NCBI GenBank assembly: GCA_051294905.1
Contig: CM119372.1
Coordinates: 1,924,001-1,988,000 of the forward strand
Length of the DNA: 64,000 nt
Direction of reading: 5' to 3'
Origin: Botryllus schlosseri
Lineage: Eukaryota
The notes below the pieces were generated by a model. It was not told the DNA's origin and did not search any database. It was given only the letters and a program-made list of their open reading frames with translations. The translations under genes and the position numbers were made by a program. Numbering within the stretch: position 1 is the stretch's first letter; every line of letters starts with the position of its first letter. Positions 3,033-62,870 of the stretch are shown one piece after another.

Positions 3033-4707
3033 ACTTGTAGTATTCTTTTATCCAAGCCTTCTAGCCTTGACTTATAGAACAGTATGGTTCTTTACCTTTA
3101 GTAACCCAGGGCACGTTAATCTACAAGCCTACAGGAACACCAAATTTTCGAGTTATACAAACAAAAAATCTACCACAATACACATCTAACTAAAAGTCTA
3201 ATTCTAATACATTACCATAGTTTACTGATGCATAAAATGTCCTTCTGTACACCGACAAAACAATTGAAATATGATTTTCACACAAAACGATGACATGATT
3301 ATGAATATTTATTGCAAATTAGTGTGAATTTCGCTGTTCATAAATGCGATACTTCAACTTGCAAAGTTTAATCGTAATTTTCGGTCGAGACGCAAAAGTT
3401 TGAATTGGAGATATAATTGGCATTTCAGAAGGAAGGGGTATCGAATTTGAACCCTAAACTCCTCTGCGTACCTCACCGCACACGGCATATCACCGTAACA
3501 GTCACGATCGACTTCTGATCGGACATAATTGCCTGTAAGCAATGATGGTCAAGACGTGCGTGTCATCACGAAGGGTCCAGACATTGAAATTCCAGTGTAG
3601 ACTCCAAAGTTATTGCGTTATTTAAAGAATAGATTGATTTGATGACGAAATCGTAAAATGCTTACACAATTTCCAAATTTGGTGAATCTACTGACGATAA
3701 TAGCATCAAAGGCGCCTTTTTGAATGTAATATAGATGCGGGCGAATATCGTATCACCGCGTCCCTTGAAGCAATATGAAATATCACTCCAGAAGCCGTGA
3801 TTGATGTCGTGATTGATGTCGTGAAGACGCTTATAAAACGAAGCTCTCAGTTAAGATTCGTCGTCGCAAGGCACAGCAGCTGAAAACTGACGCTGAACAA
3901 GCCAGTTGATCGAAATCAGGATTACTGAACTTGGTCGCAGGATGAATGGTTTCGGTCTGAGTGCATTTTCTGTGAACATTACGAAAATATGTAAAATATA
4001 TAAGCATTCAAAAGTATGGTGGCGTCCGCACGCTCCCAGAAAAGGCAGTGCTTCTCGGCGTAGAGATTTTAGTAAACTATTACTTATCGATATTTGAAAT
4101 ATGAAATATTCAAGTCGAAGTGTTTAAACTTTAATAACATTGGGGCATGAGAAGTAGAGCAGCCTTGTAAACGGTTCCACAGTGTATGCGGCAGGTGTCA
4201 GTTGATAGACGACAGTGTTAAGCGTCCAACCTAAGAGGGGCATCGCAGAGGGAAAAGTATATTATCTCGTAAAAGCAAGAATAAATTGGATTTGACATTA
4301 CGATATATATTTGATAGCTGAAAAGTGTTTCGTTACTTTTAACGTATATTTTCCTCTTTCAAATTCCAAAATGCAATAAGGATTTGGGGATTATTGGCAA
4401 TGTTTTTGGGGCGATGGCAAGTTTTGCCTCGACTCGTGATATCATTGCTACGTCTGAAGGAGTACTTCAATAAAAAGTACCAAAGTTTATTGATTTAATA
4501 AGATCTGTGACAAATAGTTATTTTTTGGAATGACTTGATGTGTAGAAGTTGGGTCTGATATACAAAATAAATATGAGCGAGAAATTCGTAGACGATACCA
4601 AGAAAAACTCACAGGTCTATAGTTTTGTGAAATATGATAACATATCGGCTAGCATTCTTTTCTAATTGCGATCCATGGTTCTTTTTAGCGTTATTAGTAA
4701 ATTGAGA

Positions 4708-7700
4708 ATGCGTGCGCCATCCATACTTTTCTTCCTATCACTGGGTAAGTATGTGATTTTGTCATTTACGATCCAAGTCCCAGAAACGTTTGTCTAGGGT
4801 TACCATATTTTGGAATCGGAAAGGAGGACACTTTTCAAAATTTTCAAACTTAGAATACCGGAAGAAATTCCTGAAAAATGGTAAATGGTAACCCTACGTC
4901 TGTCGGTGTCAAGATTCAAAATATCGACCTTCAGTGACGGGACCTTTTTTTCCTCGGCTGACTCTCTGTGGAACAATTTTACAGCTTTTATCGAATTGTC
5001 TTACACACCTAGATGTTTCAGGCGTAAATTCGAAACTGCATTCCAACTGCAGTAGTGTACAACTGTATGCACTCCGTCCTTTCATATCTATATATTTTTT
5101 TAATATATTTTATTGGCCTTGTGTAGGCTACAGCGCCCTAGTGTAAGGATGATATAAAGCATTGCTATATTCGGCGCTCTATAAATTATTATTGCATTGC
5201 AACCGCTAGAGACTAATGATAGTATGTTGATAAAATACAACAAATTCGCCCATTTGAGCTACCGCGAATCAGTGTTTCGGATAAGAAAGAGTCTCCCAAC
5301 CGAAATGCATAATGGGGAGACTTTGTTATCAGTAAGCTGTAGCCACCGTCTATTTAGATTTCTTATTTATCACTTCCTTCATGTCGCCATTACACTCGAT
5401 TACGTTCAGATGTTTGGACATCGTACTCCGCGAAAGCGCCGTGTCAGTCCACGATATCCACCCGCGGATACGGCGAGATTCGATCTCCCGATTACCCAGC
5501 AGTGAAGTCGGCTTATACCTGCTGGAATTACTTCTATTACCCGCAACCAAAGGGTGCTGTGGTCTTCAACATCACCGATATCTCACTATATTATAGTCGG
5601 GACCGGAAAAAAATTTGCTCCGCATCGTTAGAGATTGGGACGTGTAAGTAACCGTGCGGTATATATTTGCAGAAAGAATTAGCACCAATAAATTGCAAAA
5701 AGAGGATTAGAAGAGCTTCTTTGGGGTACAGAACTTCAATATACAAACGAATAATATTCGTATTGAAATAAACCCGGATATTATCGGCGAGTGTCAGTGT
5801 CAGGTTCGGGTTCAATATGAATTCTTCAATTGTACACTGAAGTTGTGTACCTCCAAGAAGCTCTTCAAAGACTTCCACAGGCATACACTGAAAGTCAGCT
5901 CTGTATCCTAAATCAACTGATAACGACCAGCGGAAGATTAAGGAAGATCTGGGTTGTGCCGGTGACGTCATATTGGTTGATACGATTGTTGATATCCAAT
6001 TTTCTTTTTAATTTTCTACTAGGTGCCGAAGATTATCCCTTACGAGTGTCAGTCAAAATATTCGGGTTTATTTCAATATGAATATATTATTCAGAAAAGT
6101 ATTAGATAACTACAATTTTAGTCAGTCTTATTTTATGAATGTCATATATTGGCCAGAAGTGCTAAGTTCCGAGATATACTTCTGCTTTTTCGGCAGATAC
6201 TCAGGTGGTTATGTTTTTTAGGCTATTTCCACTTCATTACTGAACAGTTTGCTTGCAAGCCTACTTGCTTTTATCAATTTGGATGATGGAAGTAGAAAGT
6301 AGTTTTGGGATAAGTTTGCGTCACATTTATGAGAGAAATCGTCATAAAAGCCGCGTGAAATAGCCCCTTTATCACGGTAACTGATATATTTTCGACGACT
6401 ATATCTATCCTTGTATCGTTAGTCATTTAACGGTAGCAATTCCGAAAGTGGCCACCTCCGATTATTTGCTAACCTCGGGCGACCTCGTGACCAAATCTAC
6501 TATTTTAAACTATAGTCGCCCAGTACATTTCAGGGCATTCATTTTCTGTACTGTCACTCGAAGTAGGTTTATGTGTCTTGTGAACGGCTAGTTCTACTTC
6601 TACTAGAGTAGCAACGCAGGCTACCATGACCGCCTCAGAGCTTCGCGCACTATGACCTCTCTACGCGACTATATAATTTCAAAAATCGCATGCTTTAGCG
6701 CAGGGGCGGGCAACTTCTCCAGTCGGCGGGCCGGATATAGGAAAATTAAATACTTTGCGGGACGGATTGCTGAATCGGTACATTATTCGCCCATTTATCT
6801 ACATATACAAGGAATAAATCGTATTTAAAGAATTTATTTTAACGACAGCAATGTCACTTCAAAGCCATTTCTCACCGATAATGACGAGGATATAATGTGG
6901 ATTTGAGAACAGCATTGTCATACAGGCGCCGCCATGTCTGCTTCTCCATGATAATAGTGTCCTATATGGTGTGAACACAAGAAAATCTCGCGGCTCAGTG
7001 AAATTGGTGTACGTCACACTTTCCATTTGATCAAAGGCAATTTGGCGGTAGTTCTTGACCAACTTTCCGAGCAATAAATTTGATAAAAAGGGTATCAATC
7101 GAAAGCTATCGCGGTGCTGGTTGCGAAAATATGGGTTGTATTCTGCTCGTGGACCTGGAACCCCCCAGAATCAACCTCGAATGTTGCATTGTAACGGAGT
7201 TTGGTATTGTGACGCAGCCATGCCATGCCGTCTGAGCTGCTCAGGAGCAAGCGCGCACAAGAGTAAGAGCGTGAATGCTCAATGCTTAATCAAGGGCCAA
7301 TACGCTTGCGATTTACTCTGCTCCTCACTTGCTCCCAGACGGCATCGTTGCGTCACAATACCAAACTCCGTTACCATGCAACATCCGAAGCTGATTTTGG
7401 GGAGTTCCAGGACCACGAGCAGAATAGAATTTATATTTTCGCAATCAGTACAGCGGTAGCTTTCGATTGATACCCGTTTTATCAAATTTAATGCTCGGCA
7501 AGCCGGTCAACAATTACCGTCAAATTGCCTTTGACCAAAGGGAAAGTGTGACGTAGACCAATTTCACTAAGCCGTGAGATTTGCTTGTGTACACACCATA
7601 TAGGACACTATGCTCCGATCAATGAACACACGGTGCAATCCCTAATTAATATTTCAAGGCATTCGATAAAGCCCGGTGCCCCAAATTTACCAAGATATCA

Positions 7701-10700
7701 ATTCATTAGGGCTGAGTAGGTGATGAGATAGCGTCGTTGTTCATCTGTGTGGCCTATTTTATCTCGACATTGAATTCATGCGGACCGCGGAATCTACGAA
7801 ATTTGAAAAGTGACCCGCGACTCGTTTTGAGTTGGCGACCCCTGGCATAAGCGGTGTCTTACAAAAACCTAGAAGTGTGCCGCGGTACAATTGTAGTCTA
7901 CAAACGCCATGATTACTGCAAACGATATTAGGGTTGAGTGCATCGTAAATGCCGATAATGCAAGTCTTCTCGCTTCGACGAACTTACGCGCAAGCTCCAC
8001 TCGCACGCTGCGCAAGTGCGCATATACATGTACAAAATAACATACAGTCACTAAAATTTGACGTAGTAAGCAAGTAGCGGGAAATCTCGGCAGACTGTGG
8101 CCGCGGGCCACATTATCATATACGACTGAAAACTGTCCGCGAGCCGGACAAAATTCCTTCGCGGGCCGGATCCGGCCCGCGGGCCGTATGTTGCCCGCCC
8201 CTACTTTAGTATAAATAGGAATTTGAGAGACATGTCGAATAGGGATGGTGCAAAACCCTGAACGGTTCTGGTTCTTGGTTAGTCACGTTCCATAGTTCCA
8301 CAGTGCGAAATAGTATCGAAGCAATAATTTTCGTTCATAAGTTAACTTGTAGTGGCGAGGAGCATATCATTTCAGTACTCGAGAAAGTCATATATTACTA
8401 CTTGGCTCTAAGCATCAGAATTAATACTAGATTCAGATTAGAGTGCTCGAATCATTGTGCCCAGCCCTATAATTGTGCTACGTTGGAATTACTATTGGAA
8501 CTTGGAACTCAAATTGGTTTCAGATAAAGCCCCGTGCGTGGACGCATCACCGTTCTGTCTCGTTTACTTCAACGACATGAAATGCATCCAGCCGCTCGTG
8601 ACAGAGTACAGAACCTGCCTTTGGTTCGAAACGGAGAGACGGAGCATTGATGTCAAAATATCGTCGGACGGTGGTGTTGGAAAAGACAAGACAGACAACG
8701 GAACGATGTCGAGTTGGAGCTACCCGAAAGGAGTTAAAATGAGCTACGAGTTCATTGATTGCCCGCAAGGTAGGCCTATGTGTTGTATGTTTCCCTAGCT
8801 TAATCAATTTCGTTCAAGGTGGTGGTACCCACCCGTTCTAGCGACTTTCATCTTTTTTTTCCGGATGCCGGGATTGACTGCTTAAATTCTTAGGCTGCCT
8901 GTAAAAACGCTGCACACCAAATTTATCTGGATTCCAGTTGGTAGATATGAACGCACAGGAGGTTACAACTTTTGAATTTATGAAAAAAAACATATAAACA
9001 TTTTTTCAAATCTTACTGTCAACCCCACGGAATTGATGAGTGGTCTACAAAAACGATGCAGAACAAGTTTGACGCAAGCTATGTTCCCTCTAAGCTGCGC
9101 ACGTGCGCAAATGCGCAGTGCTGACACGGTCTCTGCGCACAGAAAATCTAAGTTGCGCACAAAAAATCCGAATTGATGACCTTATTTTTAGTGGTTACGC
9201 AGTGTTGTCCAAGAGTCTGCGCAGTGAGTTGGCGAGTGTTCGCAGACTCGTCAAAAATGAGAGGGAAGATTGGACGCAAGTCTAACTCGTAGAAGCGAAG
9301 TTATTCAGCGATTATCCACCATTCACGCCATTTTTGCGAATCCAAATTTTCAACTGCAATCACTTCGCTTCTACCGGCTGAGAGAGAGCAAAAATTCTCG
9401 TTAAACATCGTTCTTTTAGACAACTCACCAATTTCACGGGGTTGAAAATTTGAAAATGACCCGTTCCAGTCCAATATTATCAGATCTGTGATTTATAAAC
9501 AGTGTCCCGTTTTCCGGATCTTAAAATATGGTAACCCTATCCTATATTCAGACCCAACAGCAACAAAGACCCCAGCGCGAACTCACAGATCATCTGTATC
9601 TCCGGGACCAGTCCTGGAACGGACAACTACATCACCCTGGCAAATCGCCACTATTAGCACTTCACAAACCGTAACCGGCTCGACCGCCGGTACTGCAAGC
9701 AACAGTTCTTCAACTCAACAAGTGACGTCACCAAAACTACCCGGCAAGCAGCGAAGTGGCAGAATTCTCACTGTGCCGGAAATAATCGTGATAGCGGTCT
9801 CGTCGTTCGTCGTGTTCATGGTGATCATTATCATAATCACGCTGATCATAATCAAAATGAAGTGAGTGCGTTCTCCAATCAATCTTCGTCGGAATTCTCC
9901 GTATAATTCGAAGAGCCTTTCGTACACCAAGAATTGCTCATGCGTGCGGTTAAAGGGACACTGCGCTCTAAATATGATACGGTCTCAGCCATTTTCTTCA
10001 GAAAACCGCCGTACTTGAACTGAAGATAGTTAAAAAATGCACCATAGCATTCTAGCGGCAGCTGTAGCCATGATTCGGACTCGACCCTCTGCTCGATGAC
10101 TTGGACTCGGACTTGACTCGGTGGTGAATTGAAAATGACTCGACTTGACTCAAGTCAAAACTATAACAGTTAGATTGACTTGTGACTCGGAACCTTGTGA
10201 CTTGGTTACAACCCTGGACCTACGTCTTAGTCCCATTTGTTTGAGTAATTACGTGGGAAATATGTCATGAGTCATCCACCACGATTCCACCTAATACAAC
10301 AGCACATAATCTCAATGCAATGAATTAAAATAAATGATGATTAGAAGTCTATGTTCAAGTTCTGCACGTCTAATCGGTTGCTGTAAAACCCAGTGGTGGC
10401 GAAAGTCAGCATTACTATTGAAACATAATAGAAGTATTAGGCCGTCTGGGAACTATAACATGCGACATTTAGATTGGGAATATTCAAGCATGACAATGCC
10501 TTCAAATCTGTTCGAGTAAAGGCTCCGAAGTTTTGGGAATGTGCCTTAAGCTAGATGCTATATTTTCTTTTATTATCTGCTGAATATATCGGCTCAAAAA
10601 TCTGATGTACAGGTCAGGCTCTAGTTGTTATCATTGTCGCAACGAATATAGCAACTATACCGCATTCTCTGTTGTCGTATACCTCGTTAATTTATGTTGT

Positions 10701-10870
10701 ATCGAATAAACATCAAATGCACGATACCGCTTGTATGACAATCGATGGATAGGTCAATTTTCCATTACAGCAAGAAAAAGAAGTCTTGGAATATGCGACC
10801 GCCTAACGTAATCGGCCGAGAGTACAGAACCGGGGAGATCCCCCCTTCCGCCAGAACGAGCGCGACGTGA
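4708..10870 (+). CDS. Single-pass type-I membrane protein with divergent CUB-like domain (paralog 1), 5 coding exons, ~308 aa
   Basis: Hand-spliced exons 4708-4744, 5410-5643, 8524-8769, 9552-9861, 10771-10870; all GT-AG and phase-consistent, 927 nt. Signal peptide MRAPSILFFLSL (in-frame upstream ATG at 4675 possible). CUB-like: CQSTISTRGYGEIRSPDYP..YTCWNY..VVFNITDISLYY..KICSASLEIG..KGVKMSYEFIDC. Then S/T-rich stalk, TM IIVIAVSSFVVFMVIIIIITLIII, KKKK stop-transfer and a short tail. Confidence 0.85.
4795..4896. mobile_element. Short MITE (TAGGGTTACCAT family)
   Basis: TIR TAGGGTTACCAT/ATGGTAACCCTA; TSD CGTTTGTC/CGTCTGTC. Relatives near 9530, 26511-26834, 27229-27631 and 52984. Confidence 0.75.
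6701..8203. mobile_element. hAT-Charlie-like MITE with nested insertions
   Basis: TIR CAGGGGCGGGCAAC / GTTGCCCGCCCCTA, GCGGGCCG subterminal motifs, imperfect TSD CTTTAGCG/CTTTAGTA. Confidence 0.65.
6953..7612. mobile_element. Foldback MITE with ~160-bp TIRs and P-like (C)ATAG...CTATG ends
   Basis: 6953-7113 is the reverse complement of ~7453-7612; TSD is degenerate. Confidence 0.8.
9079..9272. mobile_element. hAT-type MITE
   Basis: Imperfect TIR CTATGTTCCCTCT/AGAGGGAAGATTG, perfect 8-bp TSD GACGCAAG; partial copy at ~43440-43516. Confidence 0.8.
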
Positions 10871-13373
10871 GAATCTTCCAAGTTCTGCTTGTCGCGAACA
10901 AGCGCGAAGCTAAATGTCCAATTGAAAAATAGTATCTGCGTGCTTTGAAAATGCGGATTGTTGTAACTCATCTTCTTCGACACGCGCGTGACATATCGAG
11001 CTTTTAGGATATTGGAACATAGAACGTGACTGATATTTATACACAGAATCGATTCTGCGTTTTCCTGTTTCATGAATGACACCATGAGTTCACTGTAGTA
11101 TCGACCGTGAATATACAAGATTACGACTGTATAGAACAGTGGTCGGGAACCTATGGCTCTTTTGAGTATAAGATATGGCTCTTTGATATATTTTCAATTT
11201 TGTGCTAAATCTTATCGATATTGCAGCAACGTGTTAGTACATTTTCTTAACGACCAGAATGATTATTCTCGTTACAGAGTAAACATGTATTTGAGAGGTC
11301 AAGACAGTGGCGTATTCAGGGTTACGGGCTCGGACCCATTTACAAAATCCTCAACTTTAAGTTGCTGTGGCGCGAGCGACCAATGTCCCACGCGAATTCG
11401 ACGTACCCGGCATCGCGTGCTGCGTAATCTTGGATTGCACCATGCGAGAATATAAGATATAGGGACGGCTGGGACGCATATATGACAATCTAGATTTAAA
11501 ATACACATTGTCTTCCTGATCTACGCCGAGAAATGAACTGTCTTGGAAGTGACATTCTAATTTCAAATCCAAATTACAAACAACGCTTCGCTATCCACGT
11601 CCAAATTGATAAGAAGCTTTCTGTAGTACTGACGTTAAAATGTAGGCGTGTTGTGCAACATTTATGTTACCGTCGATTTGAGGAGTCGACCAATATTTAG
11701 AATCAGTATATTCGGAATCAGTTCTATGGTTATTTAGAGTAATATATCATGTATTTTAAATTCTTAGCTATTTACGATGACTTGCGCTATCACAGGATGA
11801 TTAGTAGCTTACGAGTTTTACATGGGACCCATCGGTCGCGTTGCTGCTAGGACTGTGAAAACTTTAGTATCGTGGTGATCCGATTTCGAATCGAGAATAA
11901 GGCTACGCGTACCATTCACTCTGACGTTATAACTGCATGAAAGACTTGGAAAGCTAAAATATAAAGTTTTTGTGCGACTACAAATACAATGATGCCGGTT
12001 ACATCATGATCTTTTGGCGTTTGCGACCATATGTATTTCATAGCGCTTCTATGGTCCGGCACAAACACAATTTCACGGAAATGCCGTTTCCGACAACGGG
12101 ACCAGAGCAACATTTCGCTGCAGGTTTAGAATACTGAAATTGATCCCTTGCTTCCATGAAGAGAAGAATGTATTCCGAAGCTATAATTCTCGTCCATAAA
12201 ATATCCCCAGTTGTTACCTGAGCTTACTTTTCGTATTAAAATAAAAGATGTTAGCTTGCAACAGCAATAAATCTGTAGGAGTTGAATTCCCGCATCCGCG
12301 TAGCTAGTTACATAATATCCCAATAACCTATTGTAATGACCTTCGAATATGTAGCATACCGGCTAGCTGAGGATGTCTGAGGAAGACTTTAAACATGCAT
12401 AACGAGCAAAAGCAACCTGGAAGCGAAAGTAGTCTTCAGAATGAGTAGCGATTATGTCATCTCATAGCCCCGTTTTATCGAGACAGTTTCGATGACTTTG
12501 CCGTCCAAGTACAAAATCTACGCTTGTATACAGGCGCCTGTACCCGGCATAATAAAAATATAATCCATTACAGGAGCAAATATGACTGATTGCGCAAAGT
12601 TGAATACATTATTTCTCATCTTTTCCGAGGTGAAACTGCATGGTCAACGCACTATTTCGCCAAATGCGCAACCAATTGCAGCCTCGCGATTTGATGAATC
12701 ACCGAAATCGAGGGTCGCGTGTCGTGAGTGATACCTTAGGAGTTTGTTACGGCACGATTTTCCGCTTAATCACCGATGAGCTATATCGGAAGACGTACTC
12801 ATCTCACGCTCCGTCACAGAGACTAAATTTAGTTGGTCATTTTCCCTATGACAGTATGCGCAATGCAGTCGGAAGTCAGAGGGTCAGATATATCACTCGC
12901 TGATTGATCCGCTCCCCAGCATAGGCAGACTTGGACAACTAGATAATTTTAGTTTACACAACTACATGACTTCAGTTGATTAACTCCTCTAATTACAGCA
13001 AAATTTAATTTGTGAAATGTTTCTAAGCTTTAATTTTAATTTCAATCGAACGTCTGGTATTCCTGAAAATGCTACGCAGAAGAACTGTATCGCTTGGATT
13101 AAAATGTTGTGTTTGATTTATATACCGTGAGGTAGGTTCGGGATTCATGTACCGCGGGTGGTCAATGGTCATTCACACTTGTATATCACTCGTAGGGCAC
13201 GGATGTGAATACACGCTTTTTTCGCTAAGAGTGTAGGCTACCCACTACACAAGTATAATGGGCGGATCAGTCCTGAACTTACCGTAACAATAACATCAAT
13301 GATATCCCTATCATGATATGAATTGAAATGCGGTTAGAAACAAACAAAAAGCATCGTCGACCTTGATTTGTAG

Positions 13374-16300
13374 GAACCTCGTTTGGCGAATCCAATGCAT
13401 ACCGTCGGTGCAACGACTTCCTTTGGAATCTGCTTTCGAGTGGATCTATCAGGTCTCCGAATTATCCAACCGAGAGGAATGCCGTCGCATGTAAAAACTA
13501 CTACCTTTTTATAAGCAACTCGAGCTACAGCGTTTTCGAAATCGACGATATCAGCCTGTACTATACAAACCACGGGTCAAAGATCTGCTCGGCAACTCTG
13601 CTCTTCGGAAAATGTGAGTATAGAAATTGATCTCCGGTAGAGCAATGATAAAACTCTTCTCCTTTTCTTTGAAAACTCAAGTAATATGCCTCTACTTAAG
13701 CTATACTTATTCAAATGTAATACGCTACTATTTCTACTTGTATAAAGGTATAATTCGGTTCTGTGCCGTGAGGAAATTGACCTCTACAGATCGCTGTAAT
13801 TCAGTCAGAGAACTTTTTGTTCAATCAGTACGCCGACTCAGTACTTTCGTCAAAATTAGTTCACGCGTAAAACATCTCTATATAGATGTATGCGTGTGGG
13901 TATATGTATATGTACGGTTGTATCAATGAAATTTAAGTACAATGTAGGCTAATTCCGTATATTTAATGTACAAGTCCATGGCACTAAAACGAAACAGTGC
14001 ACGTATATTTATTTGATTCGAATTCTCAATAATAAGTCTTATACACGGGGCGCTCAGCAATCACGGATAGCATGGAGGAGAAAAAAACGGGGGCGCAGAC
14101 AAGATGACCTCATGGGGCCGTATCGCAACTCCGTCGTCAAAGCATCTCGATGGTGCAGGCGAAAAAGAATATCATATCTCTCTCTCTCTCATAAGCGCCA
14201 TTACCAGTATTTTATTATTAATAATTAGGGTTGCATTTAAAACAAACGGTGTTTTAAAACACTTTGTTTGAAACATGTTTTAAACAGTATTTTAAATAAA
14301 GGCCTTTTTGAAAAAAAAGTTGTGTTTTTTTAAATTAATTTTTAATAAAAATCATGCCATAATTGTGTAAATATTTTCCAAAAAACATGTTGTATGAGCC
14401 ATTGAGCCTACGGACAATTACCACCCGATACAGCCGACGTATATCGATATGGGATGGTTGGAACCCACAAAATAGTCGGCTCCACATTAATAGTACAGAT
14501 ATTTCGTCAAAGGGGCTATATTTACCCTATATTTTCAATTGTCAATGACAATCGACTATGACGTCACAATTGAATATTAGTGACGTCATGGATGAACAAA
14601 AAAAGACATGTTTTAAATTAGGGCCTTTTTTTAAACATGTTTGTTTTAAATTGGTTTTTGTTTCAAATGCAACCCTAATACTCTCGTTATTAATGCACTG
14701 CTTGATACTCTTCCACATCCAGTCGATACGCTCGCCAACTGTTGGCTCTCTGTTACAGATGAGGTACCCTGTGAAAACGATAATCCGTTTTGCGTAGTTT
14801 ACACGAACGACCGACATTGTTTATCGGATGGTTTACCAAGAAGATACTCTCACTGCTCGATATTTCATACCGATAGTTATTACGTTCCGGTAATACTAAA
14901 TTTTCGAGGAGGATATGGAAACGAGTCCCACTGCTCCGATGCCAATCCACGCAAGGACCCGTGCGATCTCACGCACACAATGACGTTTGCAAGGGGCGTG
15001 AACATGAGATACCAGCAAGTGTATTGCAGAAAAGGTGATCAATTTCAACAGTCTAGCAAGTATTTTTGTTGAAAAATGTGACGCGGTGTCTAAACTTGCC
15101 GTCATTTGATGGACATCGAGGTTGTACAAGCTTCCAACCTAGTTAGTTGACGGTCAACTAACCACTGCTTTTTTGAATGATATATACTCGTATTGAACAG
15201 ACCCGAATATTTTCGGCTGACACTCGTCAGGGGTAATCGTCAGCAACTAGTAGAGAATTGGAAAGAACATTGTACATAAGTGATTCCCAACCGCGGCTCC
15301 CATTGACGTTTGAAAATACCCCAAAAACATTAAAAAAATCAATGTATAGCAAAAAAATATAATTCATATTGAATAATTTACCCTTGCTTGGCTTGGAGTT
15401 TATAATTGAGGGTGAAGACTAATTCCCCTGCTGTCGAGCAGCGATTCTCTACTCAGCAACCATTTCGTTACTCAACTCGTCATATAAGTATACTCACACT
15501 CAAATGCGTTCTGATCGGCACTCAAATGTAAGTCAGCTCACGACCAGACTTAAGTGCAAGGGGTGGCACAACACATTTTCCGACGGTATCTGACCATCAA
15601 ACCAATGGATCATTTGATGCATGCAACTGGCTTATCTGCAACGTTATTGATGAGTTCAGCCGCCGCATTGGCGGAATGAATCCTCTTTTGCCCATAATGA
15701 AAATGTTTTCAAATCCTATTGCCGTTAATGTGGCTCTGCTAGTAATAATTATCAACTTGAGTTGCTAGACACGCAGTCCGATATCGAGCTCAAGCAATAA
15801 TTTAAAAGTGAAGACTTACTTGAATTTTGGAGTCAAGTTCAATAGGGAAAGTATCGCAATTTGATAGTCAAGGCCTAGAAAAACGATTCTCTGTTGTGAT
15901 CAACTTATGCATGTGAAGCACGTTTTAGTAAAATGTCAAGCGTCAAGCAACTACTTCGTAGTGCGTAGGCCTATACTGCATTCTCTGCAATTTCTCCTCG
16001 CTTTGACACACTTCTTGAAGCTCAAAGCCAATGCCAAGTTGGACATTAAATTGATTTGTGTACTTATTTCTTGTTAGTGTTGCTATTCGTTGGTACGTGC
16101 TTACATGCTTTATAATTTTTGTTATACCTGATGAGTCATCATACGTCGTAACTGCCATTGAATTTCGAATAATCGAGGCGAAGAGATCGCTTAAGCCCAA
16201 TGTGTATATTTTTAGATAGTACACGAACTCCCTCTGTTGGCAGGGCCGAAACAGCACTTCACCCCCTCCTCTCCCCCCAAAAAAAGAAGAGTTGGTCTTG

Positions 16301-19300
16301 GGCCCCCACTGAGTGATAAACCAAACTTTTTGCCGGCAGAGCTGAGTGAGGTGTTGTCTTGGAAAATGTATGGCCCCGTAAATAATAATTAAGCATATTC
16401 GAGCGGTTCCGTTGGTATAACGACTTCGTTTCATGATGTTATTTCGTGACTTCCTCTCTGCCATGTCGAAAGATATTGAAATCGACCAACCGCACTACCA
16501 AAAGACGCACACGATGTCAAATTGGTATTTCTTCACTAGCAAATACAATTTTTGCCTTCGGGGTGCATTTTTCTTGTGGGGTTCAGATTGCCAGGACAGG
16601 AACATTTGGTGCCAGCCATTTCAGTGCCTGAGCAATTAAACATATATGTATATCAACTTTTTCGGTCAGCATAACGACAGTCCTTTTCGACCAAGGTTTT
16701 CTGGGAGACGATCGTTCTGGTACACTTCTCGGAATCGCATGTTCGATGACCTAAAGCTTCATATGTCTTGGTGCATCGTGGCACCTTAATGACTGTCGAT
16801 TAAATGGATCATTTCTAGAAATCATGCGAATTTTTTTCTTGGAAGAAGAGTTCAAAAATCAAGATATGGACAACAATAAATCACGCGTAGCGCGAAAAAA
16901 GTTTCAATAAAGTTGCATAAATATTCAAAACAATGCTACATTATTTTTGTTAATTCAGGAAATAATTTTGGGCACTTTTCGAAATCGCCCCCACCTATTG
17001 GGGGATTTGGGGTGCGGCAGTCACGGTCCTGTCTGTTGGTAAAAACTAGGGTGACGTATTTTGATAAAAGTCGACTGCAAGGCCCATAAATGAAAGTGTG
17101 AACGGCCACTCTCCTCGACGTCATATGAATATATTATTCAATTGTACATTGAAGTTCTATACACCCCAGAAGCTCTTCAAATATAGTTCTAGTTGTTTAT
17201 TTAAAAAATATGAAAACACGTGTCGTCGTTTGGCGTGAATCGTGATACCTGTAATCGTGATATTTGTTGCGTGATGTTACTAAAGCCATTGCCAGCTCAG
17301 TCATTACTACTAACAGTGGTGTATAGACGCTATAGCCACAGGGTGGTTTTTAAGGTTAAGGCATAATATTAGTTCTAGTTCTAGTTGCGTGTGAGTGAGT
17401 GGTCCTAGTTCCAATTCTATAGCTGCGCATTTTGGACTCCGGTAATTTTTGCAAGTCAGATCGAGGATCTATCTTTTATTGCAGCGATTTTAAAGGATGT
17501 AATGTGAAATCTATTGTATTTCTTCGACTTTCAATTATATGGTAATTTCTTAGATCCTACCCTCAATTTGATCAGCAACTCCCAAACAACCACTCCAAAG
17601 ACGAAGCCCACTTTCAGTACAAGCGAGTCGGCCAGGATGCGGGAACCGGGTCAAAACAACGTCGATTCTGTTAAAAACGACGAAGTTGACGAGAGCGGGA
17701 GATATGCAATCATGTTTTCTGTAATCGGTGTCTGTGCCGTGTTATTGGCAGCCATTATAATGATAGTAGTGAGAAGGTATGTTGATTGTTTTCCAGATAT
17801 TATCATATGCTCGTATTTTACGTTGATGACAGGCTGTCATTGATAGCACATATACTGTCATACAGTTGTTAATGTCGTTGTAGTTGATGTTATTGTTGTT
17901 CAGTAGTCATGGTGTTTAGACAAATAGACATGTTGAGCCATTTTCACTGGGCTATATTCCCTATCACCATTAGGGCTCGGCAAAATCGAGTATACTTGAG
18001 TGATTCGAATAGAGTCGATGAGGTCATAACAGTAAATGAAAGACATGGAAAGTTCAAATACGTACTTTTTCTTGCGACTACATAGAACGCAGTGGTTCTC
18101 AAACTGGGGGGCGTGAAAGCATCTGAAAAGGGACCCGAAGCTGCAGACAACTGAGAAATTTTTCGCGCTTCGCGCGATTTACGTCGAATTCATAGTTATT
18201 GCTCTGTATATAATTTCATATATGAGGATTCACTCATCAACAGTCATAACCTTTCATGCCATCAAACTATCCGTTGGGATTGCTAGCATTCTGGTTGCAT
18301 TTTGTGACATGACGATAAGGGGCGCGGAATTTTCACTATCAAAAAGGGAGGCGTGTCTAGAAAAGTTAGAAAACCACTGACATATAATGAAAGGCCAGTT
18401 CTACATCTCATTGAAGAATATATGGTATTTTTTTCGATCGTAGGCCTACGTATTTCATTGCTCTTTGTGACAATGCTGTAGGTTAACCTCGTCGTTACAG
18501 ATATGTCATTTCCTCTATATGTTTGGTATGCTGCGATAAGACAAATCGAGGTTTGAAGGTCGAAACTATAATTTTCGTCATTAGAAAAAACGAATAGCGC
18601 ATCATTTGATTACTCGACAAATCATCTCTCACTACTCGGCTCGAATCATTCGAATTAATGTTCGGTTCAGATTCGAGTAGTCTGTTCGAATGTTAATTGA
18701 AGTGATTCGAGACTAGTACTCAAATTATATGCCCCTCGCCACTACGAATTATTTTATCAACGAGAATTTAGGCTCGATACTATGTTCCACTGTGGAAGGC
18801 CGTAAACCTCGATTGACAGTATCACGTCATACAGATTGGTAGTACAAAGCTGCGTACGTCAGTGAAAATTACGTTGTCATAAAGCGCAATTAAACACCTA
18901 TGGAAAAATACCAAATTATCCTTAATGTGATGTGGAACTGCCATTATATTCTTCGTGGTCGCTTATTTCAACTTTTCACATCATTCATATTCACATGACG
19001 TCGTGATTAGTGTTACTAGAATACGCGACTCGAAGCATATCACCCGATTCAGATTTCAAATCACTCAGGTATTAAACTTTGCCGATCCGCTGGTTGTAGC
19101 ATTGGAACGTGCAATTACGCTGAACCAACACCACTCCGTGCAGCAACATGAACTGATTGCAATTCCGAGTCAAACTATATTGCTAATTTGCTCAAGCATC
19201 AATCATTCGTAAATTACAATTGCCAACGCTTTTTTAATTGAACGTGATTACGCGCAGACGCAGTTTCACAAATGCCAGATCTCGAAAGCGCATGATGCGG

Positions 19301-19558
19301 AACCAAAGTTCCACGGCTACCATGGTGAACTCTATCATCTACGGGAGCAGGCGCGATGTCCACCCATCCACGCCTACTCAATCTTCCGCTGACGCGGAAA
19401 CTTCCAGACCAGGCGAAAGCGAATACTGCTACATTGACGTGGATCTCGGTAAAGCGGAACGGGAGGGAAACTTTCGCTTCGCGTGTCAATACAGACGACA
19501 CGGCTTGAGTTCTATGGCGAACGAGGAACGAAACAACATGTTGTACGAGGAGAAATGA
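13374..19558 (+). CDS. Single-pass type-I membrane protein with divergent CUB-like domain (paralog 2); first (signal-peptide) exon not resolved
   Basis: Exons 13374-13613, 14759-15034, 17554-17776, 19258-19558, with the same intron phases (1,1,1,2) as paralog 1. Shared motifs GSIRSPNYP, DISLYY, KICSA, PFCVVY.ND..C, RGVNMRY..C. TM YAIMFSVIGVCAVLLAAIIMIVV and a ~100-aa cytoplasmic tail with several Tyr. Confidence 0.85.
14226..14677. mobile_element. MITE (TAGGGTTGCATTT TIR)
   Basis: TIR TAGGGTTGCATTT / AAATGCAACCCTA with TTTAAA/AAAC subterminal repeats; no clear TSD. Confidence 0.65.
15201..15234 (-). ncRNA. Minimal type-I hammerhead ribozyme in a Penelope-type terminal repeat
   Basis: Minus strand ACCC-CUGACGA-GUGUCAGCC-GAA-AAUAUU-C-GGGU: conserved core, 4-bp stem I, palindromic stem III. 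Confidence 0.72.
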
Positions 19559-20158
19559 TTCGCACATCATGTTCCAAAGTTTCAATGTTTAGATGAGATA
19601 CCGGTTTGCATATAGTACCCCTACACGTTGAAATTAAACGTCGAAACCTATAATATTGTGAAAAGACTTCAGTTGATGATCAACCAATAAAATATTTCGT
19701 TCGAATGGAGAATTTATTCGGGAAAATTTAAAAACAATCATTTTTTCAAATTTAATTTTCCCTAATAAATTGAAAATTTTAATTGGATCTGCGTAGGCCT
19801 ATATTTGTTAGTATTGAACCGAATTTGGCGTGCTGCGTTTTTTAGGGTAACCCGACAATTTAATCAGCGAATGGCTGGAATCCGATAAAAAAGTTATTTT
19901 TGAATAGCCCTAATGCACATTTAAATATCTGACTCTAAAGAGGCCAGTGCCTCACCAGCGATGAACTTCGCCGTACGACACTGCGTCTGATGCCTTACTC
20001 AAAGTCCAGATTACTGGTATTCGAATAAACTGTGATAAAATAATAACACCATTAAAATATGATTTTCACAGAAATCGAACATATTATAACGAACATTCAT
20101 TGCAAATATGTATTTTATATATCTGCTGCTCCCATTCAGACACTAGTTCAGAAATAAA

Positions 20159-21450
20159 CAGAGGTGGTCAAAGTAGTCAAGAAAGCTACTCAAGTAGAAG
20201 TAGAAGTAGCGAAGAAAAAATCTACTCAAGTACAAGTAGAAGTACTTCTTTCATGAGCAACCTAAAACTACTTGAAGTAGAAGTAGAATTGACTGACTTT
20301 AAAAGTACTCAAGTAAGTAAGTAGTTGTGAAAACTATCCTGATTGGGTGGATTATAAAAAGGTGCAAATTGAGCTATGTGGTAGGTGACGAGCTTGATTC
20401 ATATTGATGCATACCAGCAGGTATACAATTTTCGATAGCATAAGCATAAGCATTCGTCCACATCATGGGATGAAAATGATAGTATTGATGAGGAAATGCG
20501 ATACTAATCCTGTTTTCTCGAACAACACGTTTTGGAAAATAGCATGGTATGGCGCCATCCCCCATATTATAAGGCCCGTAGTTTAGTCGAAGAGCAATAC
20601 GGAGAAGTTGTATAGGATACGGGGTAAACACTTTGCGCGATTAGTAAACGTTAATAAAAAATATGGTGGACCGTAACAATGCCATATTGTGTAGCTTTAT
20701 TTCCAGAAATTAAATGCAATACTGCAATTGCTTTTATACTTCAACATGTATGTTATTTGGACAAAAGAACTGATATTAATTATTATAACTCAAAGTATAT
20801 GATACTGTGAATTAGTGAAATATAAATACTACTTCCAAAAGCAGAATAGGTATTTCATGTTTTTAGTCCAGAAAGTTTCAAAGGTAGTATGCTAAAACAG
20901 CTCTAAAACAAAAACGTCAAAGTCCACTCTTCCAGATTAGGACACGCCATAGACATATGCTAGATTACGATATGACAAGAAAATGCTAGATTGCGAAACA
21001 TCAGTTTCAAACGTTTTGATGAGCCATATATACTGTGATGAATTATTTCATATGGGTGAAGGGCGACAATGTGGTGTGAACGGAACCACGCCAACCCCCC
21101 CACCTAACTAAATTACATTCACCGATACTTCCGTGAAATCATACTGGTCACTCCGTATCCACTGCGCACGACGAAAATTCTGTGATTTACTAAACTTTTA
21201 TGAAAATTAAATGTTAATATTCCGTGAAAACAGCTCCGAAATTCCTCAGGCTATCTTCTTGATTGGAAGATTGAACTACTTCTACTTGACAAACTGAAAA
21301 TAGCGAGAAGTAAGTAAGTAGATCACAAAATATTAAGAAGTAGAAGTAGAAGTGGCGAAAATCAGATCTACTTGAGTAAGTACCAGAAGTAGAGGAAAAC
21401 TACTTGAGTACTTCGTAAAAGTAGAAGTACTTCGTTACTGACCACCTCTG
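20159..21450. mobile_element. hAT-type non-autonomous element with AGTAGA subterminal repeats
   Basis: TIR CAGAGGTGGTCA / TGACCACCTCTG, perfect 8-bp TSD GAAATAAA. Confidence 0.88.
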
Positions 21451-27800: not shown

Positions 27801-29713
27801 CCCTTCAAATGTTCAACTCGCCAAGCAAGTTATACCATAACGAGGATTTCCTTATCGCTATGCGTCCTAGGCCTTTGACGAATTCGATGCAGGTGAAAGC
27901 AGCCTTGGCCTCTTTGGGGAAGTCTTGGTTGTACCGTCCCGGAGCTTCATTTTTCTCTTGGAGGCCTGCGACGTCGCTGGGGCTGGGCTTTCTTGACCCA
28001 CAAGTCCCGCTGTCGTAGATGTTCTGAAAACATGAGCGTCCTTTCAGGTACAGAGGAGAGGCATCCGTCCAGGTAAAACCCACGGGCGTCAAGGTGGTGT
28101 CATAAATATCGCTTCGTTGACAATATAGAGTCAATACTACGTTTTGATAGAAATATTGGTGTTGGCAATTTCCACGACAAAACAGCACGGTAGTAGGAGT
28201 CAGACAGCTATAATCTGTGACTGTTACACTGCGAATATTGATATTTCTTGTACGGTAGCTTACAGGAGTTCAGAAGCAGCCATTCTAGTACATTTCATGT
28301 CCATTGTCCACACATGAAAATAGGCGTAAAGGTGTTCAAATTAATGCTCTCAAGTTTTGGAAACGCACCCTACGCTAGATGTCGTATCTTTTTAATAATT
28401 GAGTGAATATATCGGAGTAAACGGTGAAGGTGCTAGTCATCGAAAATCTGTTTGGGTTACTGTCAGATTTGCTACTAATAATAATAGCGATTGATTCAAC
28501 ATCGTTATGATTAGCACATAGGCTCTTAAACTAGGGTCCGTGAATCCGTTGAGGGTCGGCAGACTACGTCAACGTGTCCATGAAAGGCAAATGAAAATCT
28601 TACGATCTATTCCAGTGGTGCGGACCCCAGTTTAAGAAACCATGTGCTAGAACTTCGAGTAGAGTTAGATAATCACTCTTTTTTGCACTTGCTAATTGGA
28701 CAGACTCTATTCAGTCTATTGCAAATGACACTCTGCTTGAGATGCCCATTGTTCATTGACTCACTACTTCGAATGCCTAGCGATTTTTCGCCTAGCTGAT
28801 TTCTTTTTATAAGAAATCCCAATTCGAATTGCAGCATTATAATTATTTTATTAGTTATTGATTAATAAACCTAATGCATGTACCCTTCACATGCACTTGG
28901 TTGTGCCACTAGGAATAAATATCTCCCCAGGCCTAGCAATAGTTGAATCGGTTGACTTTTTATCCAGATTCACGAACGCATACCGGGGATATGACAGGAG
29001 TCTAGATATCTCCGATGCATCCAAACTTCAAATAGCTTGTGCCAGATATTGTTATTGAAATATGATGTGTCATGTCCATATCTCCAGTTTACCACTGCTA
29101 CACCCTACAAACATCACTGTGCTTCTTATTGAGCTAACTTATGAGAATGATGTAATCGACTTAAACGGAAGGTTAAATTTCGGGCTACTTGGGTTCCAAT
29201 ATTTTCAAGTATGAATTGATAAAACTAAGTCAAAAAATAGTCAGTTAATGAATAGGGAGACGCACCAGATAAAAGAAAGTGTCCACAAATAAACTCCTTC
29301 GGTAAATGAAGAATGGATTACAAATCAGATTTGTAGACAGATAGGTGGACACTGTACAGGCCTACATTCATAAATCCTAACCCACACACCTTTTTTCTGA
29401 ATGCGATGGAGTGGCTTTGGCTTTTCGCAGAACTTTCACAGCCTGGAAAAGCATTAATTAACCATTTCAGCATAAAAACACATAGAAAACAGTTCTACAA
29501 ATAAAACTCCCATATGGAAGACAGATATATAACGAATAGAAGATTGAATCGAACAGGAGGCGTGCAATAAGCGAACACAACGTCTGAAATAAAGACTAAT
29601 GAACTAGTGAAATACATGTGACAAAACGTTTGTGGAAAGTAATTTATTTGAAGAGCTTCTTGGAGGTACAGAAATTTAATATACAATTGACTAGTATATT
29701 CATATTGAAATGA

Positions 29714-38285: not shown

Positions 38286-39078
38286 GGGTGGAGGCCAAAA
38301 AGCTGAGTAAAAACATCCTGGATTTTCGCTTAATCTGCGAGTTCCAAGATCTCCCGATTTAGAAGTAGATGATCCGCACGCCAAAACATTGGATGTTCGT
38401 GCGAAGTTAGTAGATCTACAAATCCAGGATGTATGACGTTATTGCGTCAATATGACGCAAAATGTAGTGATCCGTGGAAGGTTGCCATGTCAACCCATCG
38501 ACTTCGTAGTAAATATTATGCTTTGGCCATGCTGATTGGAAATGTCGTCGATTTTGGTCATGTGCTATGAACAGGTGCGTAGCCAGCCGAAAAATAAGGG
38601 GGGGGTTTGAAATAAAAGGGGGGGGTTTCGATTTTTCCCGAATTTAGTAACGTAGCATCGATTCATTAGGGTTAAGTACATGCGATGCGTAAATAACGAT
38701 TATACAACATCCCCGTGTTGGCGATTATAGGCGTATGATAAGCTTGTCGACGAGTCCGGAAGTACTGGTAATTAGCGACTCCCTGATCTGTCGTGAACAA
38801 TGAAATACGCACGCGTCGAACATTTGAATACGAGCGTTTATCAACGCGCTGAACAATTAAATTCGCGCGCTTATCAAAGCGTCCAACAATTAAATACGCC
38901 TGCTCATCATTGCGTCTTGTGTCTTACGTAGCCTCGGCGACGATTTGCGCAAGTAAAAATTTACGAGTTTTTATGGAATATGTGCTATAATGACGCCGAT
39001 TTCAGGTGGTTCAAACCTTACCTCTTATAACTCACGCCTACTGGACTATAACTGAAGACTAGTGGAAATCAATTACGC

Positions 39079-41068
39079 ATGTACGCACGCGTCGAACATG
39101 ATTGCGGACATTCGATGTCATTCACAGGGATATCTTCAGTGCGCCACCTGCGTAGACTATGTGAAGATATGACAGTGACGCCAGGCAAACTTGATATGAG
39201 ATATTTGAAGGAAAGGACTAAATCTTTATCCGAAGAAGAAAAAATTGTCACCTTAATGATAGATGAGGTTTACACAGCACAGCGCGTGGAATATACAAGC
39301 GGTTCTTTCATTGGTTTAACGGAAAGTGGGAATACCGCCAAGACGGTTCTAACATTCATGGTGCAATCACTTTTCGGGAAGTACAAGGATGTGGTTTGTC
39401 TCATTCCGGTTGACAAACTTGACACTAAGACGCTGCGAACATGGTTTGATATAGTAATGGAAACGATCAACGATATGCTACTGGTGATAGCAATATCAAC
39501 GGACAATCATGTCTGTAACCGGAAATTGTTCATGGATCTCTGTAATGGAGAACTTTGTCACAGCATCGAACATCCTCATCGACCAGGAAAAAAATTATTC
39601 CTGATTTTTGATTTTACTCACAATTTCAAAAACATCTTCAACCATTTTGTGAATAAGAAGCAGATGCATCCCCCTATTAAAGGCAATGAGGATATATTTG
39701 ATGGGCCATGCCATGCAAAGTTCCTCCATATCAAAAACCTCTATGCTCTGGAAGAAGGCAAGACATTGAAAGTTGCACATCAGCTCAAAAAAGTATCTCT
39801 TGACCCCAGCAGCATTGCTCGAACTTCGCCCCAGCACGCTTTGAGCGTGTTTAGCGAATCAACGGTACTGGGACTAAAACACTTCGCAGCGGATGGACAT
39901 CCAGAATTTAAGGAAACTTCACGATATGTTGAATTCATCCTCACCATTTGGAATATCATGTCCGTTAAAAGCCCAAGTAAAGGTAAGTTACATTATACAC
40001 GTTTCTCGCTGTAATTTGACTTCAACCTAATGCAACAAAATATTCGTTTCAGCCCTGCGGAAGAGGAATTCATTTTTTACGCCACTGCACATGGGTGAAG
40101 ATCATCCCGGTGTTAACTATTTAAGAAGAGCCATAGACATTTTCAAGGATTGGCAAAAATCGGGTCGTGCTGGTCTCAGCAATGAAACATTCATGGCCTG
40201 TATTCAGACAATGGGGGCTGTGCTATCGTTGACGGAGTATCTTCAAGCAAACCACAATGTGCAATATTTATTATCCGGCAAAATAATGTCGGACCCGATC
40301 GAAGCCCGATTTGGGATGTACCGCCAGAGCAATGGCGGTAATTTCTTCATGTCTGTGAAGCAATTGCTGCTGGCGGAAAAGAAAATCCGGTGTCTAAGCC
40401 TGCTGCGACAGGACAAACTGTCCGGAGTAATCACCAGTTATGAACCGGGCGAGGAAGATGCATCAGCAAACCGCGAAGATTTCCAGTGGCTTGCTGACTT
40501 TATGCAAACTGCTGACACGGATGATGTGGACGATACTGATGCATCTGTTGTATTCTACGTTAGTGGGTACATTGGTCGCTCAATTTTTCGCCGTAGGAAT
40601 TGTGACGACTGCAAAGGCATGCTTATATCCGGTATTAATAATGCTCCAGATCTTCAGGGCGGCATTCCTGAGAAATATAAAACAATATTTCTCATGGCAG
40701 ATCGTGGAGGACTTGCTGAACCGACTGAAATTTGCTATGCTATTACATTATTGGCTGTGCAGTATTTCTCAGCTGTTTCAGCAGATGAAGATACATTAAA
40801 AAAGCTGATGTGTTGTATGAATCAGCGCAATGTTTTCTTAGATGCAATGCGTCATGTTGTGTCTTCTTCTTCTGTTCTTTGTCGCCTAATGGAAGTCGAA
40901 TGTAAATCTAGTCATTCGAACTTCAATCTTATTGTGCAAAGTGCTTTTAATTGTTTTGCAAAGAATCACCTCAAGCGTTTGAATAGCAAACCGATGCTTG
41001 AGGAGGCACCGAAGAAAAATTTTCGCAAGATCCGTAAACTGACCTCAAAGGCTTCTGCTAAATGCTAG
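39079..41068 (+). CDS. P-element/THAP9-like transposase lacking the THAP domain; two exons 39079-39982 and 40053-41068 (639-aa open frame)
   Basis: SVRHLRRL, LMIDEV, STDNH, FDFTHNFKN (DxxH), SDPIEARFGMYRQSNGGNF, YVSGYI..C..C, DRGGL. A 70-bp GT-AG intron (39983-40052) joins the two listed ORFs in frame. Confidence 0.9.
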
Positions 41069-42094: not shown

Positions 42095-43134
42095 ATGGAT
42101 ATTTTGGACAACGTAGATGGCATGCAGTTCGGACTACTAGAATACAATTGTCATGCCCAGGCATTACTTGGCAAACATATCGGACTCATTTGTAAAATAC
42201 CCAGAAAATGAATTCGTTGACCGCTACAGATTTTACAAGGGAGCTACGGTAATTCTTATTGGACATGATTAAAGACAGCCCATGGTTGGATGTACGGTGC
42301 CAAGCTTTGCACTCCATGATGCAATTACTCTGTGCTCTCCGATTTTTTGCTACTGTCATTTTCAACAAACAGATGCTGACTTGATTGGTGGCAGCCGGAC
42401 AACTGCACGCCGAATCATCCACTGCATTTCTCGGGCGTTATCAGAGAATAGAGAAAATTTATCCCACGATTGGATGATTTGTTACAAACAAAGAGTGATT
42501 TCTTTGACATAGGTGGAGTTTCAAATGTCGTCGGTTGCATTGATGGTACCCACATCCCAATAAAGTCCCCGGGTGACTCTGTACCAGAAAAGCTTATCGT
42601 TGCAGGAAAGGATATTTTTCTTCGAACTGTCAAATGGACTGCAATGCCAAGAGAATACCGGTAGTGACTAATGCTGTTGTGAGATGGCCAGGGAGTACTC
42701 ATGACTCAAGAACTTTTTCAAATTCCAGATTAAAATACAAGCTCGGCCAGAAAAAATACAATGGGATTTTGCTGGGAGGCAGAGGCTCTATGCTCTAAAA
42801 ATGTACCCGATGACTCCATTAACAAATCCACAGGCTGCACAAGAAAAAAAAATACAGCTATATGCACTCAAAGACACGCGTGCTGATCGAGCAATGCTTC
42901 GGCGTTCTCAAACAGCGTTTCCAGATGTTGCTAAATCCTATGCGAATGCAAATCGAAAACACCATCCTGGCAATCATTGCAACAATATGTTTGCACAATT
43001 TTGCTACTAAAACCAATGAGCCAGTTCCTGATATTGCAGTTACTCCCGAGGAAGCTACGGATATAACATCTGAAGTTGGATACAATGACGCAATAGCCTA
43101 TCTTGAAAATAAGATCAACACATATTTCTACTAA
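42095..43134 (+). pseudogene. Harbinger (HARBI1-like) DDE transposase, frameshifted
   Basis: Motifs spread over several frames: FVDRYRF, QLLCALRFFAT, FQQTDADLIG.SRTTARRII, VVGCIDGTHIPIKSP, RWPGSTHDSR, MTPLTNP, HSKTRVLIEQCFGVLKQRF, ICLHNF. Confidence 0.9.
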
Positions 43135-52600: not shown

Positions 52601-52984
52601 GCCCTCCGATGTTCAACGTCATGTGAGATCGCTGCTCTACCATCCAACTGCTGTCCTGTTATTTTCATTAAGAGAGGATAAGAAAGCTCGAAAAAATAAC
52701 ATTTGAGAATATATATTTTTGTTACGAGACAAGAAACATTGACGTTATCAACTACTATGCACTGTTATTAGATTGTTCATAATAGCACAGCACAGTTTCA
52801 TAAATTACAACAAAAATAGATGCAGACAGTACATTTATCGAATGGCTTAAACATAGGTATATCTGATATCGTAATTTGCATAAACATAAAAATCCCCTTT
52901 TGCTACATATTCACTGGACTTAAATGCTTTCCGTTGACTAGGATTTTGGTTCTTGTTATTCTGAATTTAGATGACAACAAGTCT
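49679..52984. repeat. Inverted duplication with ~680-bp arms (49679-50362 and ~52310-52984)
   Basis: Arms are near-identical reverse complements; the same spurious ORFs appear on opposite strands in the ORF track. Confidence 0.9.
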
Positions 52985-62481: not shown

Positions 62482-62870
62482 TCAAATGAAACAAGGATCT
62501 AAGACTTTCAAATGAAACAAGGATCTACCTCGCGCAATGACAGTAAACATTTGGTCATTATAGTTTTGAGCGCAAGAAGGGTTCTCACTTAAATGTTGGC
62601 CAATTGAAGCGTATGCTTGATAATCGTCATAACAGTCAGTTTTTGCGGCTAATTTGCATTGGCGTCCGAACTCCGTACGGTCATTTGCGCAAGTTTTTGA
62701 GCGAATCAATTTGGGAATGTGTTGCGTTATCCGTTCAAACAATCTTTGTGATGTACGTCCCACATACCTACTATCACAGTGGCACTTAAATTCGTAGACG
62801 ACGTTACTTGCATTTAAAGCAGGAAGTACATCCTTTCGGAAGTTTGGCAGAAGTAGTTTAGTTGTATACA
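62482..62870 (-). pseudogene. Penelope-like retroelement GIY-YIG endonuclease fragment
   Basis: KDVLPALNASNVVYEFKCHCDSRYVGRTSQRLFERITQH...SIGQHLSENPSC...FTVIARGRSLFHLKVL. Confidence 0.88.

Follow-up and report, generated by a model that had tools for sequence, protein, structure and literature searches.

Variation appears confined to the CUB-derived ectodomain of two tandem predicted membrane receptor genes of a styelid-type ascidian

A window of 64 kb of genomic DNA from a styelid-type ascidian contains two adjacent genes, G1 and G2, tandem paralogues whose predicted products are type I membrane receptors with a single CUB-derived domain carried by a mucin-like stalk. The CUB domain appears to be strongly variable between individuals and the transmembrane (TM) helix and tail constant, that is, variation appears to be restricted to the ectodomain. 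This variable-outside, fixed-inside pattern, as seen in Hydractinia Alr1, leads us to the reading that G1 and G2 are polymorphic recognition receptors whose ligand is a self or allo-marker, the best explanation at a probability of about 0.42.

GT-AG splicing of the window gave a G1 model of five exons (4708-10870, plus strand, 308 aa; intron phases 1,1,1,2) and a G2 model of four secure exons (13374-19558, plus strand, 346 codons; intron phases 1,1,2 after the required phase-1 first intron), with the first exon of G2 standing apart. Exon 1 of G1 (4708..4744) holds the start codon and the hydrophobic portion of the signal peptide and ends at a phase-1 donor of score 5.1. The first half of the CUB-derived domain, with C1, IRSPxYP, C2, DISLYY and C3, is encoded by exon 2 (5410..5643), and the second half, with C4 and four extra cysteines, by exon 3 (8524..8769). 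Exon 4 (9552..9861) encodes an S/T-rich stalk and the TM helix, and exon 5 (10771..10870), which is predicted only, a short basic tail with one Tyr and no YxxL/I/V motif. In G2, the two domain halves lie in exon 2 (13374..13613) and exon 3 (14759..15034), the latter including a G2-specific loop with two further cysteines; exon 4 (17554..17776) encodes the stalk and TM helix, and the coding part of exon 5 (19258..19558) a 101-aa tail with five Tyr, including those of EYCYIDV, followed by a 3′ UTR (19559..19697) with AATAAA at 19686. The introns of G1 and G2 interrupt identical aligned codons, which bears out the first-pass annotation in describing adjacent genes with the same intron phases and architecture. 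Outside the coding exons, BLASTN detected only four short matches between the two gene regions, and TBLASTN found no third copy in the 64-kb window. Intron 4 of G1 (9862-10770) has an AATAAA (10705) and matches a contig of 391 nt from run X10 (depth 11).

Elsewhere in the window, a 154-codon, Cys-containing frame on the minus strand (27805-28269) has no Pfam or PDB match, no good splice sites that we found and no relation to G1/G2. A P-element/THAP9-like transposase with two long frames, TNP-like RNaseH_N and GBD matches and a strong donor at 39983 occupies 39052-41068 (plus strand) and may be intact; it is followed by a fragmented DDE_Tnp_4 transposase remnant (42186-43134, plus strand), which we take to be Harbinger-like. 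A large, nearly perfect inverted repeat of several blocks, 95-98% complementary, spans 49679-52984. At 61434-61862, a 17-nt unit composed of TTAGG/TTAGGG-like repeats forms inverted arrays, in all likelihood the two arms of a non-autonomous transposon, and a 157-codon frame on the minus strand (62482-62955), without significant Pfam match, resembles by eye a GIY-YIG/Penelope-type endonuclease remnant.

RNA junctions, which the first-pass annotation had proposed as a check, are provided by spliced contigs. Runs aligned to 4300-20500 (4 of 24 listed) included X1, X10, X14 and X18; X1 and X10 carry no RNA label on record, yet contain spliced contigs, and both also contain intronic pieces. Contig X1-6 joins 14759-15032, 17552-17774 and 19256-19697, corresponding to G2 exons 3-4-5 (0 differences in 223 nt of exon 4), and ends at 19697, 11 bases past the start of AATAAA. 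Contig X10-8 joins G1 exons 3-4, with 0 differences in 275 nt of exon 4, and holds 184 further letters that would fit exon 2. The first 38 letters of X1-6 and 40 letters of X10-13 match the end of G2 exon 2 and overlap neighbouring contigs by exactly 30 bases, so that the G2 exon 2-3 join is supported indirectly. Junctions for G1 exons 1 and 5 and G2 exon 1 did not occur among the 15 of 742 joints listed, which are dominated by repeats, and the raw reads of X14 and X18, 98-99% repeat-derived, included no exon junction among those listed.

On alignment and cysteine register, the G1/G2 domain is of CUB ancestry. The domains of G1 and G2 are identical at 58/154 residues (38%, E 1e-30; ectodomains 36-38%), and their Smith-Waterman score of 248 compares with a shuffle mean of 31 and a maximum of 63 in 1000 shuffles. 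The claim that the two genes share only scattered motifs is thus too modest, although the four motifs named (IRSPxYP, DISLYY, KICSA and PFCxVYxND) do occur in both. The extra cysteines described earlier are real: eight are present in the G1 domain and ten in that of G2, where the additional loop in the second half contributes two, compared with four in classical CUBs. Eight cysteines are conserved across G1, G2 and both Styela clava CUB1 records (see below), four of them at classical positions in an alignment with four classical CUB stretches. Like cubilin, C1s, MASP, neuropilin-2 and PCPE1, the G1/G2 domain has G-x-I-x-SP-x-YP, the four cysteines in classical register and a terminal aromatic strand, but it is ∼35-45 residues longer, has four to six extra cysteines and lacks the YD aspartate after C3; the likeness lies mostly within the first half. 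The CUB fold is a ten-stranded beta-sandwich, and the aspartate after C3 is a calcium ligand in classical CUBs. This residue is Ala or Gly in all six family domains, and G2 also lacks the late SD motif. In the accessible text of PMC11567036, CUB domains bind Ca2+ through acidic residues, up to three, and the G1/G2 domain would lack the acidic ligands of the calcium-binding subgroup.

A profile of the two exon-2 translations, searched against 1.84 billion representatives, gave seven matches, the best being Styela clava LOC120342231 (E 1.9e-9); the other six were five multi-CUB proteins and one unrelated CARDB-repeat protein, P0003, that was rejected as a relative. The second domain halves alone align weakly with Styela (E 0.006-0.22), so that homology of the second half rests on the cysteine register. 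Pfam returned nothing above cut-off for seven exon translations of G1/G2, and none of the four half-domain translations, scanned singly, matched CUB (PF00431) at E<=1. A PDB sequence search gave no match with the exon-3 profile and insignificant matches only with the exon-2 profile; Atlas gave no usable match for G2 exon 3, and a word-based homologue search with G2 exon 2 retained 0 of 39 candidates. The earlier proposal of an atypical CUB domain in spliced type I membrane genes is supported on alignment and cysteine register, with Pfam silent on the single half-exons (0/4).

Serine and threonine make up 38% of the G1 stalk and 29% of the G2 stalk. Each protein has a single TM helix, whose 19-residue core is free of charged residues in both. 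The tails, of 35 and 101 aa as estimated before (∼35 and ∼100), do not align with each other. The description of the G2 tail as Tyr-rich was overstated: five of its 101 residues are Tyr, and its motifs do not exceed chance: shuffling gives p 0.06 for the two overlapping YxxI/V motifs, and 9% of shuffled tails also contain a relaxed ITIM-like motif, of which the G2 tail has one. No canonical ITIM, hemITAM or ITAM was found in G1 or G2. Paired activating/inhibitory receptors have near-identical ectodomains and an ITIM tail versus a charged TM or ITAM; with ectodomains 36-38% alike, no canonical ITIM or hemITAM and no charged TM residue, G1 and G2 would not form a pair in this sense, and both classical paired receptors and Themis were rejected as identities for them. 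Read-through of G1 into intron 4 reaches a stop three residues after the TM helix, and a tail-less G1 isoform is possible.

The uncharacterised Styela gene LOC120342231 is the only relative of full architecture that was found. A profile search retained 2 of 5089 candidates, both this gene, from two accession series (XP_039266912.1, here P0002, and XP_077967409.1, here P0012), each cluster comprising isoforms of one series; the two series probably represent assemblies of different animals. The Styela protein resembles G1/G2 in its atypical CUB1 (29-31% identity; G1 over the whole domain 27%, E 4e-12), eight cysteines in register, S/T stalk, single TM, Tyr-bearing tail and restriction of variation to the ectodomain, and differs in having two CUBs per chain and a longer tail (232 aa, 12 Tyr) that cannot be aligned with that of G2 (E 1.7). 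This tail has seven YxxL/I/V motifs (p 1e-4), including the ITIM-like VSYAKV. Isoforms X1 and X2 (P0002/P0009) differ solely in the last tail residues, right after the ITIM-like motif. The Pfam CUB score is 48.2 bits against a cut-off of 21.4, PDB sequence matches are to C1s, cubilin, MASP and neuropilin-2 (best E 3e-7), and the top families in Atlas are CUB without exception. Mean pLDDT values were 33.4 and 30.7 in two structure predictions of the protein, and a word-based search of the Styela CUBs against short proteins retained 2 of 206, both classical CUB fragments. The second domain, CUB2, keeps four cysteines; the four lost together are C1, C2, the terminal cysteine and one of those in the insert. 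Putative disulfide pairs are C1-C2, C3-C4, Cx-Cz and Cy-C-terminal, the last two being suggested by this joint loss. With a relative carrying all eight cysteines in register in Styela clava, the family that had been called lineage-specific needs widening.

Comparison of the two Styela records, P0002 and P0012, locates the differences between them. Substitutions affect 36/147 residues of CUB1 and 36/138 of CUB2 (72/285 CUB residues), compared with 9/78 in the stalk, 1/24 in the signal peptide and 1/257 in the TM and tail; all cysteines are retained in both records. Of 32,835 contig pieces for the window's species, 16, selected by length, were displayed, and 13 of these were used; two mixed intron-exon pieces (3/357 and 1/357) and one repeat piece (25/227) were left out. 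The six pieces that lie wholly within CUB exons show differences from the window at 42/1444 bases (0, 4, 5, 1, 17 and 15), and the seven unique non-CUB pieces at 2/2054. Since sites within a contig are not independent, a Fisher test on these counts is descriptive. Inside two single spliced contigs, 9/518 CUB-exon bases differ versus 0/940 elsewhere. The CUB-exon signal comes mainly from G2 and one run, with G1 at 5/244. Contigs over G2 exon 2 show 0, 1 and 17 differences in 234-236 nt, the last two being X10 contigs of equal length and with equal ends, and those over G2 exon 3 show 4/274 and 15/220. Among the three exon-3 variants displayed, one is silent and two change a residue. The 88% cut-off conceals more distant versions, and 52 letters of X10-13 fall outside its displayed piece.

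These counts bear on the earlier call for a polymorphism check, with allelism presumed, and CUB-exon-confined variation here and in the Styela relative supports the suggestion of a fast-evolving recognition receptor. The divergent CUB versions are probably alleles, and selection would maintain many of them with the TM and tail fixed. The variable columns of Styela CUB1 and CUB2 are not shared beyond chance (p 0.82) and do not avoid columns conserved between G1 and G2 (p 0.69), so that no binding patch is defined.

An intact signal-peptide exon for G2 was not found in the window sequence. The only strong intergenic donor, at 13132 (score 5.0; the next scores 2.1 and true donors 2.4-6.2), delimits a candidate exon 1 (12999..13131, plus strand) with a hydrophobic frame open for 43 codons; in the required phase, this frame is hydrophobic at its end and its last codon is TGA (13128-13130). 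No other convincing first exon was seen upstream of 13374 in the window. The TGA may indicate a null allele, a sequence error or a wrong exon, and G2 may be null in this haplotype. Contigs X10-11 and X10-12, whose alignments begin at 13368 and thus six bases inside the intron, match neither upstream exon and may be unspliced RNA. Alternatively, G1 and G2 may be one locus with two isoforms, in which exons 1-3 of G1 are spliced either to its own exon 4, giving the short tail, or to exon 2 of G2. The second isoform would read signal peptide-CUB-CUB-stalk-TM-Tyr tail, a Styela-like architecture, and would account for the absent G2 signal exon. The start of contig X1-5, at 13372, would fit if the exon before it ended in AG, like exon 3 of G1, but donor 13131 explains this start equally well. 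The G1 exon 3-G2 exon 2 join leaves a 518-aa frame open, which is no evidence for it because phase-1 introns make this automatic. No such joint is among the 15 of 742 listed, G1 has polyA-like signals of its own (10705, 12266 and 12551), and a tree places G1 with G2, apart from Styela CUB1 and CUB2, with weak support (85/88, not starred, long branches flagged), suggesting that the CUB was doubled independently in the two lineages. We consider the single locus unlikely; it concerns architecture and is compatible with any proposed function.

We infer the ligand, the signalling by G2 and the allorecognition role as follows. On a contacting cell, the CUB-derived domain would bind either a polymorphic marker of self or its own allele; G2 would signal the contact through phosphorylation of the EYCYIDV tyrosines and recruitment of SH2 proteins, and G1, without such a motif, would serve as binding partner, ligand or decoy. 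The tyrosine step is the weak one, given that the motifs do not exceed chance and that neither a charged TM residue nor a canonical hemITAM or ITIM occurs. Nor is polymorphism in itself proof of a role in self-recognition, since Ciona vCRL1 is highly polymorphic and yet no self/non-self determinant in fertilization (excerpts of PMC9265791). Diversity driven by pathogens, with the CUB as a pattern-recognition module or a parasite-exploited host surface protein whose variability is maintained by host-pathogen conflict, as has been proposed for the single-pass Biomphalaria proteins PTC1/PTC2, would likewise lead to variation restricted to the ectodomain. High extracellular diversity of snail transmembrane genes is interpreted in this way (excerpts of PMC10875847), and a relative exists in a solitary ascidian, i.e. 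without colony fusion. However, no expanded cluster is seen, with two copies in the window and one Styela gene detected; we hold pathogen-driven diversity to be somewhat unlikely, and allorecognition somewhat likelier.

A role in gamete recognition, as a self-sterility factor analogous to Themis or HrVC70, would fit ascidian self-sterility in being based on multiallelic gene pairs, and the CUB domain of HrProacrosin binds vitelline-coat proteins (both from the portions of PMC9265791 available). The architecture of G1/G2 is unlike that of s/v-Themis (PKD-like and fibrinogen-like, nested), and the Tyr-motif tail of the Styela relative indicates immune-type signalling; this role is highly improbable. 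It is distinctly unlikely that G1 and G2 are ordinary CUB adhesion or co-receptor proteins whose apparent hypervariability reflects paralogues with homogenised tails, or relaxed constraint. The divergent versions may be paralogues in either species, and G2 may carry a nonsense codon; however, relaxed constraint should leave more change in a disordered tail than in a domain held together by disulfides, the opposite of what is observed, and the cysteines are intact in both Styela records. The polymorphic recognition receptor remains our preferred reading. According to a wider proposal, which we regard as rather unlikely, G1/G2 and the Styela orthologue would define an allorecognition system that is built on CUB domains, is conserved among styelid ascidians and does not depend on fester/FcoR and fuhc, which are Ig-based; in such a system, the hypervariable cysteine-rich CUB would bind allele-specifically and the invariant tyrosine tail would read the binding.

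Among known systems, Hydractinia Alr1 and Alr2, as far as the available text describes them (bioRxiv 10.1101/2022.03.25.485889), are likewise single-pass, variable outside and conserved inside, with Tyr motifs and tandem paralogues with different tails; Alr1 alleles are about 30% identical outside and 94% inside. They differ in their Ig-like domains, in their demonstrated function and allele-specific homophilic binding, and in deeper divergence. With allelism presumed, G1 and G2 would share the Alr-type combination of a variable ectodomain with a conserved TM and tail. For scale, Botryllus fuhc-sec alleles differ at ∼25/550 residues (excerpt of PMC12065747). Botryllus fester/FcoR are also adjacent ascidian receptor genes, of which one carries tyrosine motifs and the other none, and the G2 motifs fit their 'core-1' YxxI/L/V, again at p 0.06 in shuffles; unlike G1/G2, FF/FcoR have Ig and Sushi domains, FF has three TMs and the families exceed 35 genes (accessible parts of PMC12582321, in which the string CUB occurs a single time, inside a DOI). 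An identity of G1/G2 with FF/FcoR was rejected, as neither the exons nor the Styela relative have an Ig or Sushi match. Biomphalaria PTC1/PTC2 are hyperdiverse single-pass proteins with stalk-TM segments too, but form large clusters tied to parasite resistance, with no CUB mentioned in the available portion of PMC10875847.

In the literature accessible to the search, we found no account of a polymorphic tunicate receptor based on a CUB domain. What would be new here is the location of variation in a CUB domain, an Alr1-type pattern on a non-Ig fold as far as sequence comparison can tell. The invertebrate allorecognition receptors compared (Alr, fester/FcoR) are Ig-based, and a CUB domain with the variable-outside, fixed-inside pattern in two ascidians would extend the idea of a convergence of unrelated folds on signalling by tyrosine motifs. 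The available text of PMC5465252 cites allograft rejection in Styela as well as contact reactions of solitary ascidians, and a gene of the G1/G2 type offers a genotypable candidate locus for both. If the wider proposal of a CUB-based system were true, this system would be a candidate determinant of allograft rejection and of contact reactions between hemocytes of solitary ascidians. It would also place a histocompatibility-type receptor on a fold without any such example in the literature searched.
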